A stretch of 64,000 nucleotides of DNA from assembly GCA_030019415.1 (NCBI GenBank), contig JASEEX010000002.1, positions 3,823-67,822 of the forward strand, given 5' to 3'. The DNA comes from Thermodesulfovibrionales bacterium (GTDB lineage Bacteria > Nitrospirota > Thermodesulfovibrionia > Thermodesulfovibrionales > SM23-35). Below are positions 1,847 to 63,325 of the stretch, in pieces; the first letter of the stretch is position 1; the number at the start of each line of letters is the position of its first letter. The notes below the pieces were generated by a model. The model was not told the origin of the DNA, made no database searches, and saw only the letters and a list, made by a program, of their open reading frames with translations. Position numbers and translations under genes: made by a program.

Positions 1847-1885
1847 AGTTCTTTACCCCGTTAGATAATAAATATCTAATGGGGT

Positions 1886-5536: not shown

Positions 5537-6234
5537 ATCTTGCCTTCAAAATAGTAGCCTATTCCGCGCAAAGTCTTGATATACACTGGGTTAGCCGGGT
5601 CTTCCTCAATATGAGCCCTTAACCTCCTGATATGCACATCAACTGTTCTCAGTTCAACAAAAGCCTCATCACGCCATATCGCATCAAGGAACTGATCCCG
5701 ACTGAATACCTTTCCTCTCTTTTCAGCAAGATAAAGAAGGAGCTTAAACTCTGTTGCACTTAGTTTTACAGGCTTTCCTTTAATAGAAACTGTATATCTC
5801 TCTCTGTTTATTTCCAATTCTCCAATTTTCAGTATCTTCTCGGTTACAGGTTTTTCTGCTGACCTCCTGAGGACAGCTTTTACCCTTGTTACGAGTTCCC
5901 TGGGACTGAACGGCTTTATCATATAGTCATCGGCCCCCATCTCAAGGCCGAGTATCCTGTCGACTTCTTCTCCCTTTGCAGTAAGCATGATAATGGGCAA
6001 TCCTTCTGTTTTTGGATCGTTTCGTAGAATTCGACAGAGTTCCATACCCTGTAGCCCCGGGAGCATGAGATCGAGGACGATGAGGTCATATCTACCCTTT
6101 TTTATCTTATTGATGGCAACCTCACCATCTAAGGCTGAGTCCACAATAAAGCCTTCTTTCTTTAGATTATATGATACAAGCTCAACAAGGTCAGCCTCAT
6201 CATCAACAACGAGGATATGTTCTGGTGGATCCAT
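5533..6234 (-). CDS. phoB: OmpR/PhoB-family response regulator
   Basis: Receiver domain (ILVVDDE ... DLIVLDLMLPG ... MLTAK) plus a winged-helix C-terminus (LTATEFKLLLYLA ... RTVDVHIRRLR ... IKTLRGIGY). It is adjacent to phoR and pst. Confidence 0.8.
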   Translation of the reverse strand: MDPPEHILVVDDEADLVELVSYNLKKEGFIVDSALDGEVAINKIKKGRYDLIVLDLMLPGLQGMELCRILRNDPKTEGLPIIMLTAKGEEVDRILGLEMGADDYMIKPFSPRELVTRVKAVLRRSAEKPVTEKILKIGELEINRERYTVSIKGKPVKLSATEFKLLLYLAEKRGKVFSRDQFLDAIWRDEAFVELRTVDVHIRRLRAHIEEDPANPVYIKTLRGIGYYFEGKM

Positions 6235-30460: not shown

Positions 30461-31900
30461 ATGAACAAACAGGATTCAGGATACAGGATTCAGGATTCAG
30501 GATTAAGGGAGGGGCTGTTTATTATCTTGTTTACTGTTTACTGTCTACTGTTTACTGTCTATTTATCTTCCACACCTGCATATGGTCAGGACAACACCCA
30601 GAAAAAAGATAATCAGAAAATTGTATTAAATCTCGAGCAGTGCATAAAAAAGGCAATTGAGATAAGTCCAGAGATAGGAGAGTCCCGGTATGAGGAAGAG
30701 GTATACAAGTCAAAGAAGCTACAGGCAGATTCAGCGGTCTATCCACAGATAGAAGTCCTTGCCTTGACAGGCCCTTCTCCGAGGGCAAGGGGGGATCAGT
30801 TAGACTCTCCAGATGACTCTACAAGGCCCACCATTAACGGAATCTTTGGTATTGCTGAAGTAACTTTAACTCAGCCTATATATACCTTCGGCAAGATAAG
30901 CAGTTATAAAGAGGCTGCTTTAAGTGGTATAAAAGTAGCAAAGGCAGGTGTAGAGAAAAAGACCTCAGATATTATTTTGAGAACAAAAGAACTCTACTGG
31001 AGCCTCCTCCTTACCAGGGATATTAAAAATCTTGTCCTGGAGATAAAGGACGAATTTGTTACATCCATAGAAAAGGCAGAAAGGCAGCTCGAGGCAGGTT
31101 CTCCATGGGCAGATGAACTGAATCTTTTCAAATTGAGGGCATTCTTAGGCGAGGTTGAGAGGAATCTCAATGAGGCTGAAAAGAGCGAGGCCCTTGCGAA
31201 GAACGCCCTCATGACCAGCCTCGGACTTCCGAAAGGAACAGAGTTTGATATTGCAGAGGCATCTTTATCCCCTGAAGATAAGATGCCTGAAGATATAAAA
31301 AATTACTTAAAAAATGCAACGGAACTGAGACCTGAATTCATCCAGCTCAAGGAGGGCCTGAATGCCAAAAAAGCCCTTCTTGATGCAGAAAAAAGCAATT
31401 TCTATCCTCAGCTTTTTATTGGTTTATCGGGATCTATAGCAGATGCATCAAACAGGAACCGGGTGGAAAACCCCTTTATTTATGACTATTTCAGCCATGT
31501 CTATGGCGCTGCATATCTGGGACTTAAATGGTCTGTTGATTTTGGGATAACACAGGGAAAGGTTAAGGAGGCAGAGGCCGAGTATTATAAATTATTAGAG
31601 AAAAAGAGATTTGCTGATGAGGCAATCCCTCTGCAGGTGAGAAAGGCATATCTTGAATTAGAAGAGGCAAGGAAGAGTATTCCAGAAATGGAGAAGGCTT
31701 ACAAAAATGCAAGAAAATGGCTCGTTGCAGCAATTGCAAACTTCGACCTTGGCATTGGTGAGGCAAAGGAAATAGCTGATGCTGTAACGGCCTATGCCCA
31801 GATGAAGGTAAATTATCTCCGCACTGTGTACAACCATAGAATGTCCTTTGCAAATTTATCTTATGCAACAGGTATAGATATTAAAGAAGTAAAGTCGTAG
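30461..31900 (+). CDS. TolC-family outer-membrane protein
   Basis: 479 aa with a signal peptide and duplicated OEP-type coiled/beta repeats. It is embedded in the mla operon. AGGAGGG lies before the ATG. Confidence 0.75.
   Translation: MNKQDSGYRIQDSGLREGLFIILFTVYCLLFTVYLSSTPAYGQDNTQKKDNQKIVLNLEQCIKKAIEISPEIGESRYEEEVYKSKKLQADSAVYPQIEVLALTGPSPRARGDQLDSPDDSTRPTINGIFGIAEVTLTQPIYTFGKISSYKEAALSGIKVAKAGVEKKTSDIILRTKELYWSLLLTRDIKNLVLEIKDEFVTSIEKAERQLEAGSPWADELNLFKLRAFLGEVERNLNEAEKSEALAKNALMTSLGLPKGTEFDIAEASLSPEDKMPEDIKNYLKNATELRPEFIQLKEGLNAKKALLDAEKSNFYPQLFIGLSGSIADASNRNRVENPFIYDYFSHVYGAAYLGLKWSVDFGITQGKVKEAEAEYYKLLEKKRFADEAIPLQVRKAYLELEEARKSIPEMEKAYKNARKWLVAAIANFDLGIGEAKEIADAVTAYAQMKVNYLRTVYNHRMSFANLSYATGIDIKEVKS
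30470..30504. repeat. Tandem 7-nt array CAGGATT x5 (N-region of the TolC-like signal peptide)
   Basis: caggatt caggata caggatt caggatt caggatt. It encodes QDSGYRIQDSGL. Confidence 0.9.
30530..30564. repeat. Tandem 7-nt array TTTACTG x5 (H-region of the TolC-like signal peptide)
   Basis: tttactg tttactg tctactg tttactg tctattt. It encodes FTVYCLLFTVYL. Confidence 0.9.
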
Positions 31901-31908
31901 GAGGTTTT

Positions 31909-32649
31909 ATGAAAGGAATTCGAGATTCAAGATTCATCCTGTATCATTTGTCATTTTTACTGTTTACCCTGTTAGAAAATGCCCTGCGGCTTGCCACGGG
32001 GTTATTCCTTATTTTACGAACACGGGGTTTAATGCCCCGTGTGAGTTTTCTAACGGGGTTTACTGTTTACTGTTTACTGTTTACTGTTCCTATAGCATAT
32101 GCTGGAGAGCCAACATATCAGGTGAAGCAAACCATTGATGGTGTTCTTGACATTTTAAAGAACAAAGAACTAAAAAAGCCTGAAAAGACAAAAGAAAGGA
32201 GGGCATTGATACGCAAAGTTGTTGGAAATAGATTTGATTTTGAGGAGATGTCAAAAAGGTCCCTCGCCCTTCACTGGCGAGCAAGGTCATCAGAGGAAAA
32301 AAGGGAGTTCGTAGCATTATATAGCGATCTTCTTGAGAGATCCTATATTAAAAAGATTGAAGGCTATGAAGATGAACAGATCTTATATACAGGGGAAACT
32401 ATTGATGGTGACTATGCAGTCGTAAAAACCAAAATAATCACTAAAAGGAATGTTGAGATACCAATAGAATATAGACTAATGAAGAAAAATGCCAAATTTG
32501 AAGTATATGATGTGGTAATAGAGGGTGTGAGTCTTGTGAATAATTATAGAAATCAATTCAACAGGATTATTCGAACCAGCTCATATGCGGAACTCCTCAG
32601 GAGGATGAAGAGTAAACAGGAAGAAGAACTTTTTGTGGAAACCCATTAA
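31909..32649 (+). CDS. mlaC: MlaC / Ttg2D-family periplasmic lipid-binding protein
   Basis: The mature part (from YQVKQTIDGVLDIL to VIEGVSLVNNYRNQFNRII) is typical MlaC. The ATG at 31909 has AGGAGG upstream. The 5' 180 nt is made of a MITE plus heptamers, so the true start and leader are uncertain. Confidence 0.7.
   Translation: MKGIRDSRFILYHLSFLLFTLLENALRLATGLFLILRTRGLMPRVSFLTGFTVYCLLFTVPIAYAGEPTYQVKQTIDGVLDILKNKELKKPEKTKERRALIRKVVGNRFDFEEMSKRSLALHWRARSSEEKREFVALYSDLLERSYIKKIEGYEDEQILYTGETIDGDYAVVKTKIITKRNVEIPIEYRLMKKNAKFEVYDVVIEGVSLVNNYRNQFNRIIRTSSYAELLRRMKSKQEEELFVETH
31962..32063. mobile_element. MITE-like element, family A (TTAGAAA-type termini), inside the mlaC 5' region
   Basis: The termini gtttaccctgttagaaaa and ttttctaacggggtttac are inverted repeats. 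An internal hairpin reads acacggggtttaatgccccgtgt. TTTACTG units flank the element (1 on the left, 4 on the right). Confidence 0.75.
32059..32086. repeat. Tandem 7-nt array TTTACTG x4 (H-region of the MlaC signal peptide)
   Basis: tttactg x4 encodes FTVYCLLFTV, followed by PIAYA-GEP. A fifth unit lies at 31956-31962 on the other side of the MITE. Confidence 0.9.
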
Positions 32650-32703: not shown

Positions 32704-32801
32704 GGGAGTGTATGGGGTTCTGGTGTCCCCCCTGGACTTCAAATCCAGTGTTTCCTGCCAAAATCGGGAAGGGTGGGTTCGATTCCCACACACTCCCGCC
32801 A
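32704..32801 (+). tRNA. selC: tRNA-Sec (anticodon UCA)
   Basis: 8-bp acceptor stem gggagtgt/acactccc, anticodon stem ctgga/tccag with loop cTTCAaa (anticodon TCA). It has a long variable arm, T arm gtggg-ttcgatt-cccac, discriminator g and an encoded CCA. Total 98 nt. Confidence 0.9.
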
Positions 32802-39564: not shown

Positions 39565-40701
39565 GTGATAACCTCACCACTGAGGGACATATTCAGGATT
39601 AATCTCGATGTAAAAAAATACGAGAGGGTTCTTCTATTTACTGACAGACCTTCAGAAGAGGAGATAGATGAATCAGATAAAGAGCGAAGGTTGAAGTTAA
39701 GATGTCTCTCTATATTTGCTGCCGAGATAGGTAAGAATTTCTGTAAGACAGTCCTATTCCATGAGTATCCTGCTACAGGCAGCCATGGCGCAGAACCACC
39801 AGAAGAACTCTGGGAGCTTGCCTTCGGGAGGAAGACGGTTGAGGCCTTAAAGAAAGAGGGGCTCCTTCTTCCTATTCTTATGAAGGATGCAAAGGATAGT
39901 GATATGAAAAGGGCGGAGGACATCATCAGAAGGCATAAAAATAATGCCGTGAACTGTGTGATTGCCCTTTCAAATTATTCCACGAGCCATACGAGTTTCA
40001 GGGATTTCCTGACGAGGATTTGCGGCTGCCGATATGCGAGCATGCCTCTCTTTGATATCTCGATGCTCGAGTGTGCCATGAATGTTGACTGGAGGGCCCT
40101 CGCAAAAAGGACGAGAGGGCTTGCAAGGGAAGTAAACAAGGCTGAGTTTATAGAAGTAAAGACCTTAAATGGCTCCTATATCTCTTTCTCAAAAAGGGGA
40201 AGGAGGGCAAAATCGGATACAGGGATTCTTACAAGACCAGGCTCTTTTGGCAACCTTCCAGCTGGTGAGGTCTTCCTCGCACCCTTAGAAGGGACAGCCA
40301 AAGGCAGACTCATCCTCGAGTGGGCTCCAACAAGGCGGCTTAAATCTCCCATAACCCTTACTGTTAAGGACGGCTATGTCGTGGATGTTGAGGGTAAAGA
40401 TGAGTATGCTGAATATCTTAGAGCAAAACTTTATGAAAAGAAAGAAAATAGAAATATTGCCGAGTTTGGCATAGGCACGAATGACCATGCTACGAGGCCG
40501 GACAATATCCTTGAGTCAGAAAAGATCCTTGGAACCATACATATAGCCCTCGGCGACAATAGCTCCTTTGGCGGAAAGATCAAAACACCTTTTCATCAGG
40601 ACTTCGTTTTTTTTAAGCCAACGGTGAAATTAATTCATAAGGATGGTAGTAAAAATACTATTCTTAAGTCGGGCAGACTCCTCTGCAGGGAGTGCATATG
40701 A
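39565..40701 (+). CDS. Peptidase M29-like aminopeptidase (AmpS/PepS family)
   Basis: Motifs GNLPAGEVFLAP, EFGIGTN, IHIALGDN and PFHQDFV, as in thermophilic metallo-aminopeptidases. GTG start. The call is made from memory of family motifs. Confidence 0.55.
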   Translation: MITSPLRDIFRINLDVKKYERVLLFTDRPSEEEIDESDKERRLKLRCLSIFAAEIGKNFCKTVLFHEYPATGSHGAEPPEELWELAFGRKTVEALKKEGLLLPILMKDAKDSDMKRAEDIIRRHKNNAVNCVIALSNYSTSHTSFRDFLTRICGCRYASMPLFDISMLECAMNVDWRALAKRTRGLAREVNKAEFIEVKTLNGSYISFSKRGRRAKSDTGILTRPGSFGNLPAGEVFLAPLEGTAKGRLILEWAPTRRLKSPITLTVKDGYVVDVEGKDEYAEYLRAKLYEKKENRNIAEFGIGTNDHATRPDNILESEKILGTIHIALGDNSSFGGKIKTPFHQDFVFFKPTVKLIHKDGSKNTILKSGRLLCRECI

Positions 40702-41687
40702 GAACCCTTTCCCTCGGCTATTCCCCATGCCCCAATGATACTTTCATATTCTATGCCCTCGTCCGCGGGAAGATCGATACAGAGAATATGGGTTTTAAAG
40801 AGGCCCTGCTAGATGTTGAGACCCTTAATCAGATGGCTTTGCGCTCCGAACTCGATATTACAAAGATTTCATATCATGCCTTCGGCCATCTCCGTGAAGA
40901 CTACTGCCTCCTCCGCTCTGGCAGCGCAATAGGCAGAGGCTGTGGGCCTCTGGTAGTTGCAAAGGAGGACTACACCTTGAAGGACTTAAGGGGGAAAAGG
41001 ATAGCAATCCCTGGCAGGCTTACAACGGCAAACCTGCTTTTACAGCTATTTTCTTCAATCTTCAACCTTCAACCTTCAAATCCCCCTCTACCCCCCTTTA
41101 CCCCGTTAGAAAGCCCTGCCATTTGTGGCGGGGATGATATAGGTAAAATCTCAATTCCTTATAGAAAAGACGGGGCTTTAACCCCGCCTTTTCTAACGGG
41201 GTTTACTAAAGGGGGGCGGGGGGGGATTATTGAAATGCCTTTTAATAAGATCATGGATGCAGTTGTGAAGGGAGATGTGGATGCAGGACTGATAATCCAT
41301 GAAGGAAGATTTACCTATCCTTCTTACGGCTTGAAGAAAGTTTTAGACCTCGGCGAGTGGTGGGAAAATGATACAGGGTTACCTGTACCCCTCGGCGGTG
41401 TACTTGCTAAGAGGAATCTGGGAAAAGACCTGATAAAGAGGGCCGATTCAGTTATAAGAAAGAGTATTGAGTATGCATTAAAACATAGGGATGAGCCAAA
41501 GTTCTATATAAAACAGCACTCCCAGGAACTCGAAGAGGAAGTTATAGAGCAGCATATAACTCTCTATGTGAATGATTATTCTTTAGATATTGGTGAGGAA
41601 GGGTTATCAGCCGTTAGAGAGCTCCTCAGAAAGGCGGAAATGAAAGGGATTATCAAGGGATCGAGAAACTCTCTATGCGTTACGTAA
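40698..41687 (+). CDS. mqnD: 1,4-dihydroxy-6-naphthoate synthase (MqnD), carrying a ~59-codon repeat-derived insertion
   Basis: [57 protein letters not shown] and [13 protein letters not shown] are collinear with the remembered Thermus MqnD. There is an ATGA overlap with the upstream gene. Confidence 0.7.
41053..41080. repeat. Tandem 7-nt array CTTCAAC x4 inside mqnD
   Basis: cttcaat cttcaac cttcaac cttcaaa encodes [10 protein letters not shown]. It directly precedes the intragenic MITE. Confidence 0.9.
41081..41225. mobile_element. MITE-like element, family A, in-frame inside mqnD
   Basis: The core inverted termini are tttaccccgttagaaa (41097-) and tttctaacggggtttac (-41206). They are extended by complementary C-rich and G-rich tracts (ccccctctacccccc / ggggggcggggggg). 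The element has no stop codon in the mqnD frame. Confidence 0.75.
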
Positions 41688-43555
41688 TCCTCGGGACTGC
41701 AGGCCATATAGACCACGGAAAGAGTGCCCTCGTAAAGGCCCTGACAGGCATAGACCCTGACAGGCTTAAGGAGGAGAAGGAAAGGGGCATCACGATTGAC
41801 CTCGGTTTTGCAGACCTCAGTTATCCCGATGGCCTTATTATTGGGATTGTAGATGTCCCGGGACATGAGAAGCTCGTCAGGAACATGCTTGCAGGTGCAG
41901 GCGGGATAGACCTCGTGCTTCTTGTGATTGCTGCTGATGAAGGTATTATGCCGCAGAGCCGTGAGCATTTACATATATGTGATCTCCTGAAGATCAAATC
42001 AGGTCTCATTGCAATCACAAAGGCAGACCTTGTAGAGAATGAATGGCTTGAGCTTGCAAAGGATGAAGTGAAGGATTTTGTAAAAGATACATTCCTCGAG
42101 GAGGCACCGATAGTGCCTGTCTCATCAAAAACGATGTTTAATATAGATCTCCTTAAAGAAGAGATAAGAGCTGTAGCATTAAGGGTCGAACCAAAGCCAA
42201 CGAAAGGTCTCTTCAGGCTTCCCATAGATAGGGTCTTTACGTTAAAGGGATTTGGAACTGTTATCACGGGAACTGCTGTATCCGGAAGCATTTCCGTTGA
42301 CGATACTGTGGAAATACTTCCGAGCAATATCAAGAGCAGGGTTCGTGGGCTCCACAGCCACGGCAGACCCATACAAAGAGCGTGTGCAGGGCAGAGGGTG
42401 GCGATAAATCTTCAGGGAGTAGAAAAAGAGGAGTTAAAAAGGGGAGATACCATTGTTTTGCCCAGAAGGTTTATCCCTACAAAGACAGTTGATGCAAAGG
42501 TAGAGCTCCTTCGGGGTGCGCCAGCTCTTAAGCATAAAGGCCTTGTCCATCTCCATCTCGCCACATCAGAGACTATAGCGAGAGTCATCCTCTATGGCAA
42601 GGATGAACTCAAACCAGGCGGTAGTTGCTACTGCCAGCTCAGACTTCAGGACCCTGTTGTATCCATGTCTGGAGATAGATATATCATCAGGAGATTTTCC
42701 CCTGTTGAGACGATTGGTGGAGGAGAAGTACTCGACCCATCTCCACCGAGGAGGAGACACAAGGATGGAGCTGAAGACCTGACGACATTCGAGAAAGGCA
42801 GCCTTAGTGATAAGATTTCTTTAAAGGTTCTATACTCAGGGCTTCACGGTATCTCTACAATGGCTATTGAGGGATGGATAAAGGCTGAAACCCCAGCGAT
42901 AAAAGATTCTATAGAGATACTCATAGAAAAGGGGCTCATCCTGAATATAGAAGATGTACTTATTCATAAGACCGTTTTTGATGCCTTTAGGGAAGGGGTT
43001 CTTCAGACCCTGAAGGATTTTCACGCGAAAAACCCCCTGAAACCCGGAATGCCTAAAGAGGAGCTCAGAGTCACATTAAATATAGAACCCAGACTCTTTG
43101 GCGGACTGATTGCATCACTTAAAGATACCGCTATAGAGAAGGAGATAGTCCGTCTCGGGACCTTCAGTATGGCCCTATCCCGCGCAGAGGAGACACTAAG
43201 GGCTAAGATACTGGAGCTCCTGCAGAAAGGTGGATTTCAACCTCCGACTAAAGAAGAATTATCTCAATCTCTCAAGCTGGATCAGAAACATATTTCAGAT
43301 ATATTAAAACTCATGGTGAAAGAGGGGGGTCTTGTAAGGATTAACGAATCTATGTATCTGACTGCCTCTGTTTATAATAACATGATCGAAATCCTAAAGA
43401 ATTTCTTCAGTAAAAAGCCTGAAATGACCGTAGCAGAATTTAGAGACATCCTCGGCACGACAAGAAAGTATGTTATTCCCTTTTTGGAATACCTTGATTC
43501 AAATAAGATTACATTAAGAGTTGAGGATATAAGGAAGTTCCTGCTCAGACCCTAA
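41675..43555 (+). CDS. selB: Selenocysteine-specific elongation factor
   Basis: GTPase motifs [19 protein letters not shown]-Tu-like domains II/III are followed by a C-terminal winged-helix extension. 626 aa. Confidence 0.9.
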
Positions 43556-46167: not shown

Positions 46168-46962
46168 ATGAAGATCCAGGTTCTCAGAAACATTGGCAGA
46201 AGGCTTCTTAAGGAAATTCCAACCATGAGGCTTAGACCGTATACTCAAATAGCTATTGGTGTTGGTGCAGCAGGCGATAAGACCTTCCTTATAGATAAAA
46301 GGGCAGAAGAGATTATTATCTCTGGTCTTGATGAGTCAGGGGAAGCCTTAACACTTATCTCTGAAGAGATTGGTATAAAGGACATAAAAGGCGGAGGTAA
46401 GAAGATTCTTATAGACCCCATTGATGGTAGCAAGAATGCAATCTCGGGAATCCCTTTTTACTGTACATCCGTTGCAGTTGTAAATGGAAATACCCTGGGG
46501 GATATCGAACTCGCATATGTTGTGAACCTCATAAATGGTGATGAGTTCTGGGCAGAGAAGGGCAAGGGCGCATTCTTAAATAGTAAGAGGATATATACAC
46601 AAAGGGACGACGAATTTTATCTTATCGCATACGAGGCGCAGTCCCCTCACAAAGACATTCCACGGATAATTCCACTTCTTTCAAAATCAAGAAAAACCCG
46701 ATGTCTCGGTGCTACCGCACTTGACCTTGCATACCTTGCCTTTGGTGCAATCAGCATCTTTGTTACCCCATCCCTTTCGAGGGGCTTTGACTTCGCAAGT
46801 GGCTATCTGCTTGTAAGGGAGGCCGGAGGGATATTTACGGATATTAAAGGTAATACCATCGAGACCTTCGAAGTCAGCCTTAAAAAAGGTTCCTCACTTC
46901 TCGCATCAGGAAATAAAAGACTCCACGAAAAGGCATTGAGACTCCTGGGTAAACCCCGTTAG
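46168..46962 (+). CDS. suhB: Inositol monophosphatase / fructose-1,6-bisphosphatase family protein
   Basis: Motifs ISEE, LIDPIDGSKN, and ATALDLAYLAFG in an IMPase fold. The stop codon lies inside the adjacent MITE terminus. Confidence 0.75.
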   Translation: MKIQVLRNIGRRLLKEIPTMRLRPYTQIAIGVGAAGDKTFLIDKRAEEIIISGLDESGEALTLISEEIGIKDIKGGGKKILIDPIDGSKNAISGIPFYCTSVAVVNGNTLGDIELAYVVNLINGDEFWAEKGKGAFLNSKRIYTQRDDEFYLIAYEAQSPHKDIPRIIPLLSKSRKTRCLGATALDLAYLAFGAISIFVTPSLSRGFDFASGYLLVREAGGIFTDIKGNTIETFEVSLKKGSSLLASGNKRLHEKALRLLGKPR

Positions 46963-47078
46963 AAGACCTTTCGCCCTTCTAACGGGAATGCTCACACGGG
47001 GCATTGACCCCGTGTTTGCTCGAAAAGGAAATTATTTTCACCCCCGCTGCAAGCAGCGGGGCATTCTAACGGGGTAAA
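46949..47078. mobile_element. MITE-like element, family A (~130 nt)
   Basis: Termini gtaaaccccgttagaa and ttctaacggggtaaa. Internal hairpins are cacacggggcattgaccccgtgt and cccgctgcaagcagcggg. It is collinear with the copy at 59599-59729. Confidence 0.8.
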
Positions 47079-52744: not shown

Positions 52745-52786
52745 TTTACCCCGTTAGAAAGCCCTGTCCTTTCTAACAGGGTTTAC
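52745..52786. mobile_element. Minimal family-A hairpin (termini only, 42 nt)
   Basis: tttaccccgttagaaa-gccctgtcc-tttctaacagggtttac. The ubiE stop codon (52783-52785) lies inside its right terminus. Confidence 0.75.
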
Positions 52787-59598: not shown

Positions 59599-59729
59599 GG
59601 TAACCCCGTTAGAAAGTATTTGACTTTCCAACGGGGAGGCTCACACGGGGCTTTAAACCCTGCGTTCGCTCTAAAGGAATTTTATCTTCATCACCACTGC
59701 AAGCAGTGGGGCTTTCTAACGGGGTAAAC
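59599..59729. mobile_element. MITE-like element, family A (~131 nt)
   Basis: Termini ggtaaccccgttagaaa and tttctaacggggtaaac. It is collinear with 46949-47078 by eye, with substitutions scattered along its length. Confidence 0.8.
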
Positions 59730-63244: not shown

Positions 63245-63325
63245 GTAAACCCCGTTAGAAAATGACTTTCTCACGGGGTCTATATCATCCCCGCCATAAA
63301 TGGCGAGGCTTTCTAACGGGGTAAA
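63245..63325. mobile_element. MITE-like element, family A (81 nt)
   Basis: gtaaaccccgttagaaaa ... ctttctaacggggtaaa, lying 74 nt upstream of dsrD. Confidence 0.75.

Follow-up and report, generated by a model that had tools for sequence, protein, structure and literature searches.

Short palindromic repeats that are read in-frame within otherwise unrelated proteins are known from the Rickettsia palindromic elements (RPEs; Ogata et al. 2000), which have been reviewed together with intragenic transposable elements of the miniature inverted-repeat type (MITEs; PMC10969869). RPEs are short, multi-copy palindromic repeats found in-frame in unrelated genes, including housekeeping genes, and they are translated at positions where the protein fold tolerates them. 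The same description applies to the elements discussed here, which lie in a stretch of 64,000 nucleotides (nt) from a Thermodesulfovibrionales metagenome-assembled genome (MAG; contig JASEEX010000002.1), hereafter the window. Within it, mqnD, the gene for 1,4-dihydroxy-6-naphthoate synthase of menaquinone (vitamin K2) biosynthesis, carries an insert composed of repeats nested within one another. The reading favoured here, to which we assign a probability of roughly three in four, is that this nested repeat DNA occupies a single surface loop of MqnD, where it is translated, tolerated and filtered by selection in a manner similar to the RPEs.

Classical bacterial MITEs with occasional in-frame copies, such as ERIC, Correia/NEMIS, RUP and the cyanobacterial MITEs, form a second point of reference (PMC10969869; PMC2229807). 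Like these, the innermost element in mqnD and its relatives have terminal inverted repeats (TIRs), are small, lack a transposase gene, duplicate their target and are mostly intergenic, with some in-frame fusions. A third comprises the repetitive extragenic palindromic (REP) sequences and bacterial interspersed mosaic elements (BIMEs) with their REP-associated tyrosine transposases (RAYTs), and the palindrome-associated elements derived from insertion sequences (ISs) of the IS200/IS605 type, of which IS608 targets TTAC. The minimal copies of the inner family are likewise single hairpins with a fixed short motif at the foot, and insertion beside a particular sequence of 4-5 nt (TTTAC) resembles the TTAC targeting of IS608. 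To our knowledge, REPs are essentially extragenic, unlike the inner family. Lastly, the cyanobacterial short tandemly repeated repetitive (STRR) sequences consist of tandem 7-nt units of several sequence types scattered through the genome, some of them within open reading frames (ORFs), and the heptamer arrays accompanying the present palindromes are likewise tandem, of several types, scattered and in part intragenic.

The mqnD ORF runs without interruption from position 40692 or 40698 to 41687 of the forward strand. Its product is matched by PF02621 in two separate stretches (E 5.5e-79; Pfam), by Thermus MqnD (2czl; E 3.9e-83), and is identical to P0001, a protein of a Thermodesulfovibrionales MAG that carries the annotation MqnD. 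In the alignment to 2czl, query residues 1-120 correspond to residues 1-117 and query residues 178-323 to residues 122-267; thus, 57 query residues stand opposite four in Thermus. An earlier note on this DNA, written without database searches, had described an insertion of about 59 residues, open throughout, between flanks nearly contiguous in the Thermus enzyme. The near contiguity, the absence of any stop or frameshift, the coordinates and the exact translation, including the 60 residues quoted, all agree with the present analysis. The extra residues are likewise real, but the excess amounts to only 47 when measured against the nearest insert-free orthologues of 282 amino acids (aa), the loop of which is about 10 residues longer than that of Thermus. 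Most close relatives are 282 aa in length and approximately one in seven clusters is longer, with all MqnD length variation confined to this single loop between LLLQLF and EMPF.

The insert is built from three layers (Table 1). A CTTCAAC heptamer array, counted earlier as four copies and given as 3.9 by Tandem Repeats Finder, abuts the left arm of a 46-nt G/C-rich palindrome, the C-rich (41079-41100) and G-rich (41207-41228) arms of which form a 22-nt inverted repeat. Between these arms lies a 105-nt MITE-like element with TIRs complementary at 13 of 13 nt. The latter two layers had been regarded in the earlier note as one element, termed family A, with C-rich and G-rich extensions; the multi-copy element with its perfect TIRs stands, whereas the extensions belong to a separate and older palindrome.

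This order of events was established by direct comparison with the DNA of three relatives (L001, L002 and L004) over the loop. In L001, the MqnD of which shares 94% aligned identity with that of the window, and in L004, both the heptamer array and the G/C-rich palindrome are present and the palindrome centre is unbroken, with CCCCCCTTTAC joined directly to TAAAGGGGGG (also written CCCCCCTTTAC followed by TAAAGG). In the window, CCCCCCTTTAC and TAAAGGGGGG are separated by 105 nt (41102-41206) missing from L001 and L004; these 105 nt end in a second TTTAC, such that the filled site bears TTTAC on both sides. In L002 the same centre holds a different, small G-rich palindrome, and in L004 an extra 16-nt palindrome interrupts the heptamer array. 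The array has an identical copy number (3.9) in L001 and L002, and array and palindrome are in-frame in the window and all three relatives. Because the centre is uninterrupted in L001 and L004, the C/G-rich arms represent an older, independent element and the family-A element a later, lineage-specific insertion. Furthermore, since no fewer than 120 unrelated copies of the outer palindrome have this same empty sequence as their consensus centre, the difference reflects insertion in the window lineage and not excision in the orthologues. Homologous sequence in orthologues had been named in advance as evidence against an insertion; it exists for the array and the G/C-rich palindrome, which are thus inherited, but not for the 105-nt element, the mobile origin of which is borne out by the empty target sites. 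The 105-nt element entered TTTAC in the centre of the older palindrome and duplicated TTTAC or TTTA. A target-site duplication and an IS200/IS605-like insertion 3' of the target yield the same empty and filled sites, and the arrangement resembles, by analogy, IS200/IS605-like targeting beside a fixed TTTAC. The occurrence of empty and filled sites in close relatives provides an unusually clean natural before-and-after pair for the entry of a mobile palindrome into a coding region.

The history that would produce this arrangement begins with entry of the heptamer array and the approximately 46-nt palindrome into the loop that joins helix 110-121 to strand 176-179. This would have happened in an ancestor common to the window lineage and three or more further Thermodesulfovibrionales lineages, both layers having stayed in-frame ever since. 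The 105-nt element, bearing the TIR ACCCCGTTAGAAA, would have inserted later at the central TTTA(C), in the window lineage only, duplicating its target. Owing to a length divisible by three and to landing in the one stop-free combination of orientation and phase, mqnD stayed open. The product would be an MqnD whose catalytic core is intact and whose loop, of about 57 residues, is Pro/Gly-rich and disordered. The in-frame state would then reflect survivorship, with gene-breaking insertions purged and the loop permissive, and not a design feature of the element.

Features of the host protein give indirect but consistent evidence of a gene that still works. No variation is seen at S58, G83, T109, T110 or H201 among 58 orthologues, of which the window protein is one. 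H201 is the conserved His of the IHE motif and is counted among the catalytic residues. S58, G83 and T109/T110 correspond to Thermus S57, G82 and T105/T106, reported as active site and hinge (PMC2859130). An AlphaFold2 model built on the orthologue alignment has a core with a predicted local distance difference test score (pLDDT) of about 90, while residues 128-173, between helix 110-121 and strand 176-179, score below 50. The best structural match of the model is MqnD 2czl, with a template modelling (TM) score of 0.94 on the target (Foldseek). The modelling proposed in the earlier note therefore returns a preserved MqnD fold from which the insert emerges as a disordered loop. This loop is predicted to lie at the far (C-terminal) end of the helix carrying the active-site TT motif, at a distance of some 15 Å as estimated from helix length alone.

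The ratio of nonsynonymous to synonymous substitution rates (dN/dS) in the core is 0.23 against L001 (dS 0.12) and 0.105-0.108 against L004 and L002 (dS >1). The older layers are in-frame and core dN/dS is low even at dS >1, which argues for long coexistence of the insert with purifying selection. When changes were polarised with outgroups, eight nonsynonymous (N) and nine synonymous (S) were assigned to the window lineage, compared to nine and 13 in the MITE-free L001; these counts, which have low power, give no sign of relaxation after the MITE insertion. In other orthologues the same loop is occupied by no fewer than five distinct palindromic sequences, each of them in-frame (P0003/L002; P0004/L004; P0019/L263, z = -8.6; P0100/L261, z = -7.5; P0095/L124). 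The loop of L263 (501-1403) contains two perfect hairpins, that of L261 (501-1415) a tandem GTACGGGCGGGGTAACCCCGCCCCT hairpin, and that of L124 (1501-2493) a different palindromic element read VIP..GIQ...RTAGMT.

An open frame through a palindromic element had seemed, in the earlier note, unlikely by chance and a hint that such elements are selected to be translatable. Neither proposal is supported by the counts. One frame of the three in each TIR is closed by a stop codon, TAG or TAA; the element is stop-free in one of six placements by phase and orientation and, with the target phase fixed as it is here, in one orientation of the two. The 46 copies with a length of 80 nt or more have on average 0.91 open frames each, compared to 0.93 in shuffled sequences. 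An excess of lengths divisible by three (42 of 88 copies), considered as a sign of selection for translatability, vanishes once intragenic copies are removed (30 of 76). A frame bias among intragenic copies, 11 of which read NPVR..SNGV and one TPLE..FLTG, was not taken as a signal, since by our reasoning it arises mostly from the TAG and TAA stops of the TIRs and from GTAAA, which contains TAA in one phase. No frame-broken intragenic copy was seen, so that survival of harmless insertions explains the pattern and selection for translatability is not required.

The earlier note had left two options, a tolerated loop or a recently disrupted gene that happens to stay open. The former is the better of the two, given the in-frame older layers, a core dN/dS of about 0.1, the other palindromes at this position and the preserved fold, and mqnD is most likely not a broken gene. 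The closest competitor, which we consider unlikely, holds that mqnD was inactivated a short time ago by the 105-nt element, whether by misfolding, by poor translation of the -85 kcal/mol hairpin or by premature termination, with a frame that is open only by luck and with menaquinone either coming from a paralogue or being dispensable. The uniqueness of the insertion to one MAG contig, the strong RNA structure and the terminator-like hairpin on the sense strand would suit a fresh pseudogene, and the odds of one in two at the site, or one in six generally, make luck not implausible. Such a pseudogene is nevertheless difficult to reconcile with a loop that already harboured foreign sequence in four lineages, under purifying selection, and that holds other palindromes in other orthologues, with an N:S ratio in the window lineage equal to that of its MITE-free sister, or with the integrity of every catalytic residue. 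Additionally, the inner family is in-frame elsewhere in Pfam-supported genes, housekeeping genes among them, without broken examples. The search for a second mqnD or mqnA advised in the earlier note covered the 64-kb window, which contains neither, nor any other PF02621 gene.

Several considerations weigh against a tolerated, translated insert. The mRNA across the insert folds at -85 kcal/mol (z = -6.9) and the sense strand carries a weak terminator-like hairpin, either of which might reduce expression of the 3' half of mqnD and of the downstream selB. The number of terminator-like hairpins is not above shuffle expectation. The 105-nt insertion is seen in one MAG contig (P0001: one member, one contig) and may therefore be very recent, in which case the 17 polarised changes would be unable to detect inactivation. 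The paralogue search covered 64 kb, and a compensating copy could lie elsewhere in the genome. Low pLDDT denotes no predicted structure, which is no proof that the loop is harmless. Finally, direct observation covers the layered anatomy, the empty site, how the families are distributed, the conservation of the core and the statistics on selection, while we infer tolerance of the insert by MqnD, production and activity of the protein, and the manner in which the element moves.

A gain of function by the loop, as an interaction surface or through regulation by an mRNA hairpin, for which it would then have been retained, is a distinctly improbable alternative. The older part of the insert is constant in length and frame across diverged lineages, as is the heptamer copy number (3.9), and this might be expected of an exapted sequence; conservation of frame, however, would be needed in any required gene. 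Loop content differs wholly among orthologue clades, most orthologues (282 aa) have no insert, the loop is predicted to be disordered and the same peptides occur in unrelated proteins, all of which argue against a retained function.

Removal of the insert before the mature protein is formed, by intron-like splicing, as an intein or through ribosomal bypass, is very improbable; a very stable hairpin with conserved termini speaks in its favour. No Rfam intron or ribozyme matches the window at the gathering threshold and only noise matches the insert at E up to 10, while the insert peptide, as read from its sequence, lacks intein termini; a known RNA family, a self-splicing intron and an intein were rejected as candidates on these grounds. 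Moreover, 12 of 12 intragenic copies are stop-free with lengths divisible by three and none is out-of-frame, as translation through the element predicts and splicing would not require. Equally implausible is an assembly artefact in which a repeat was mis-joined into the mqnD contig, as could befall a multi-copy element in a MAG, because the gene's unique sequence carries on to either side without a change of frame, the TTTA(C) duplication standard for the family is seen at the junctions, precisely in the middle of the host palindrome, and the mqnD copy is distinct from the window's remaining copies.

Table 1. Coordinates of mqnD, of the layers of its insert and of further inner-family copies in the 64-kb window.
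Feature	Position	Strand	Basis or remark
mqnD	40698-41687	+	329 aa, intact
Heptamer array CTTCAAC, period 7, x3.9, 27 nt, 9 codons (SIFNLQPSN region)	41053-41079	+	Tandem Repeats Finder
Left arm and central TTTAC of older G/C-rich palindrome, AATCCCCCTCTACCCCCCTTTAC, read NPPLPPF	41079-41101	+	inverted repeat, orthologue comparison
Left target pentamer TTTAC (or 4-bp TTTA)	41097-41101		flank and orthologue comparison
Left TIR ACCCCGTTAGAAA	41100-41112	+	100% complementary repeat
Recent MITE-like insertion, 105 nt = 35 codons, second TTTAC included	41102-41206	+	empty versus filled site
Internal hairpin 1, CCCTGCCA-TTTG-TGGCGGGG	41114-41133	+	shared with other copies
Internal hairpin 2, CGGGG-CTTTAA-CCCCG, then CCTTTTCT	41171-41186	+	weakly terminator-like, sense strand
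Right TIR TTTCTAACGGGGT	41190-41202	+	complementary to left TIR
Right TTTAC (target-site duplication or element-borne 3' end)	41202-41206		flank and orthologue comparison
Right arm of older G/C-rich palindrome, TAAAGGGGGGCGGGGGGGGATT, read (T)KGGRGGI	41207-41228	+	inverted repeat, orthologue comparison
Second in-frame family copy, inside TGTTTAC heptamer array encoding MlaC signal peptide	31967-32058	+	92 + 4 nt = 96 nt = 32 codons
Intergenic copy, same sub-family as mqnD	63249-63322	-	30/33 identity over hairpin 1
Intergenic family copy	46953-47075		TIR search
Intergenic family copy	59603-59725		TIR search
Minimal single-hairpin intergenic family copy, between two genes	52748-52782		TIR search
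Minimal, diverged intergenic family copy	1855-1885		TIR search

The inner element is a member of a dispersed family. Its TIR has 14 matches in the window, compared to 0.05 expected by chance, representing about seven elements (Table 1). The first internal hairpin of the mqnD copy recurs in the copy at 63285-63317 and in copies from other phyla (L029, L047, L071 and L106). In the MlaC gene (PF05494; 31909-32649), the TGTTTAC array encodes the hydrophobic core of the signal peptide, and an ATG within the element copy would give the canonical signal peptide MPRVSFLTGFTVYCLLFTVPIAYA/GEP.

Beyond the window, the 16-mer TTTACCCCGTTAGAAA is found at no fewer than 119 genome loci, including two complete genomes, with hosts in Omnitrophota, Planctomycetota, Nitrospirota, Desulfobacterota, several lineages of the candidate phyla radiation (CPR), KSB1 and others. 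The mqnD sub-family is also present in several other MAGs (Desulfovibrionales, Syntrophaceae and other Deltaproteobacteria bins). Family members share constant ends of 13-16 nt around an interior that varies between 0 and about 200 nt, for a total of approximately 30-230 nt with 16-nt ends. The inner element thus combines a size below about 300 bp, the absence of a transposase ORF, TIRs, a target duplication at the empty site and dispersed copies, as is typical of MITEs; a cognate autonomous IS with the same TIRs was not found in approximately 130 fetched loci, where, as weak evidence, no TIR pair 300-4000 nt apart encloses a gene. ORFs adjoining 13 solitary TIRs are mutually unrelated, with no recurrent protein among them. 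Downstream of one of these solitary ends (L062, minus strand) is an ORF with an N-terminus that appears tyrosine-recombinase-like by eye, the sole such neighbour among the 13.

Twelve of 88 complete inner copies lie in-frame within long ORFs, and all 12 add a stop-free length divisible by three. Direct-orientation TTTA (or its complement TAAA) is found on both flanks in 10 of the 12. Copies outside the window read [N/Y/H]PVR[K/N]...SNGV, and 10 of these 11 were put through Pfam, each proving to reside in a gene with confident domains. The hosts are DNA polymerase III delta' (HolB), an AIR-synthase/HypE-like protein (AIRS), exonuclease III (Xth), IF-2 (infB), glutamate 5-kinase (ProB), FolD, an oxidoreductase NAD-binding domain protein (possibly PyrK-like), a Kdo-type kinase, a GH57 enzyme and a Memo-like protein. 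FolD was confirmed by alignment to 3p2o, in which 24 residues stand opposite four. A gene split by a frame-breaking inner copy was also sought and none was found, candidates for such broken genes being intergenic copies between adjacent genes. In L078 (minus strand, ~5648-5743), a phosphoglucomutase-like ORF enters an intergenic copy and stops at the TAG of the TIR (GGT AAA CCC CGT TAG), and in L110 (5052-5190) the terminal repeats of one copy enclose a complete tRNA-like sequence. Searches of cultured plasmid and phage collections by blastn returned no copy. The exact 16-mer TTTACCCCGTTAGAAA is contained in 14 IMG/VR viral contigs (L247-L260), a possible vehicle for spread between phyla.

The outer G/C-rich palindrome is similarly dispersed. 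An exact search for its 21-nt centre retrieved at least 120 metagenome contigs, which share the consensus AATCCCCCC-N3-CCCCCCTTTACTAAAGGGGGG-N3-GGGGGGATT between unrelated flanks. In-frame copies within long ORFs account for 30 of 124, and the peptides NPPxPPFTKGGxGGI, NPPxPPFSKGGxGGF or IPPxPPLVKGG are encoded in unrelated proteins. Period-7 arrays occur within 45 nt of seven of the 124 outer copies, compared to six of 1200 random positions on the same contigs (L127-L246), an enrichment of about 11-fold that points to heptamer array plus palindrome as a recurrent composite. Near the same 124 copies, periods of 5, 6, 8 and 9 show no enrichment, and the period-7 arrays have unrelated unit sequences. 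The window itself contains about 14 period-7 arrays. In an OEP/TolC-like protein (30461-30560), CAGGATT x5.6 encodes QDSGYRIQDSG at the N-terminus and TGTTTAC x4.4 encodes LFTVYCLLFTVY in the signal-peptide core.

The surroundings of mqnD are compact. Its ATG overlaps the stop of an upstream M29-like gene (ATGA) and the start of selB (41675) overlaps its 3' end, both overlaps being conserved in relatives. With selB (41675-43555) and a tRNA-Sec gene (32704-32797) in the window, and selA upstream in the syntenic relative L001, selenocysteine machinery is grouped around mqnD.

Set beside the systems described at the outset, these elements are an analogue of the RPEs and not members of that group (RPE-1 to RPE-10), from which their hosts and consensus sequences clearly set them apart. 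RPEs belong to one genus, whereas the present elements come from free-living anaerobes, with an inner family extending over many phyla. The present elements are shorter (~30-230 nt), with strongly conserved 13-16-nt termini, a variable interior and a TTTA(C) target duplication; they need no conserved element-encoded peptide frame, as two frames are used, and in mqnD one element is nested within another. Unlike classical MITEs, they have no cognate IS found here, and their termini are identical across phyla, where known families are lineage-restricted. In contrast to REP and IS200/IS605-derived elements, they have true inverted repeats, with the target on both sides (direct in 10 of 12 intragenic copies) and no Y1 transposase seen. 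The heptamer arrays differ from STRR sequences in phylum, in their 11-fold enrichment beside the G/C-rich palindrome and in encoding parts of signal peptides and loops. The literature searched contains no description of either palindrome or its peptides, nor of MITEs in these phyla.

The mqnD locus is a clean new example of a known phenomenon, selfish DNA tolerated in-frame within genes. The 329-aa MqnD should accordingly be annotated as intact and not as a pseudogene, and its fold has a loop that accepts up to about 60 foreign residues. The wider pattern, comprising two widespread palindromes, nesting at TTTAC and an association with heptamers, is a more interesting lead than the mqnD case itself. 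It is conceivable, at less than even odds, that the two palindromes (ACCCCGTTAGAAA, inner, many phyla; AATCCCCCC..TTTACTAAA..GGGGGGATT, outer, at least 120 unclassified metagenome contigs) constitute an undescribed class of mini-elements that routinely colonises protein loops of free-living anaerobes, as a wider counterpart of the RPEs, and that these target each other's TTTAC centres to generate nested "insertion nurseries", with heptamer arrays as a by-product of transposition. If so, uncultured bacteria would quite generally draw on the class for the sequence of loops, linkers and signal peptides. Two small palindromic families are in any event found in-frame in many genes, housekeeping genes included, the inner one across many bacterial phyla. 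This bears on the reading of MAG proteins with odd Pro/Gly-rich inserts, on the routes by which sequence is added to protein loops and signal peptides, and on how tiny elements spread between phyla.

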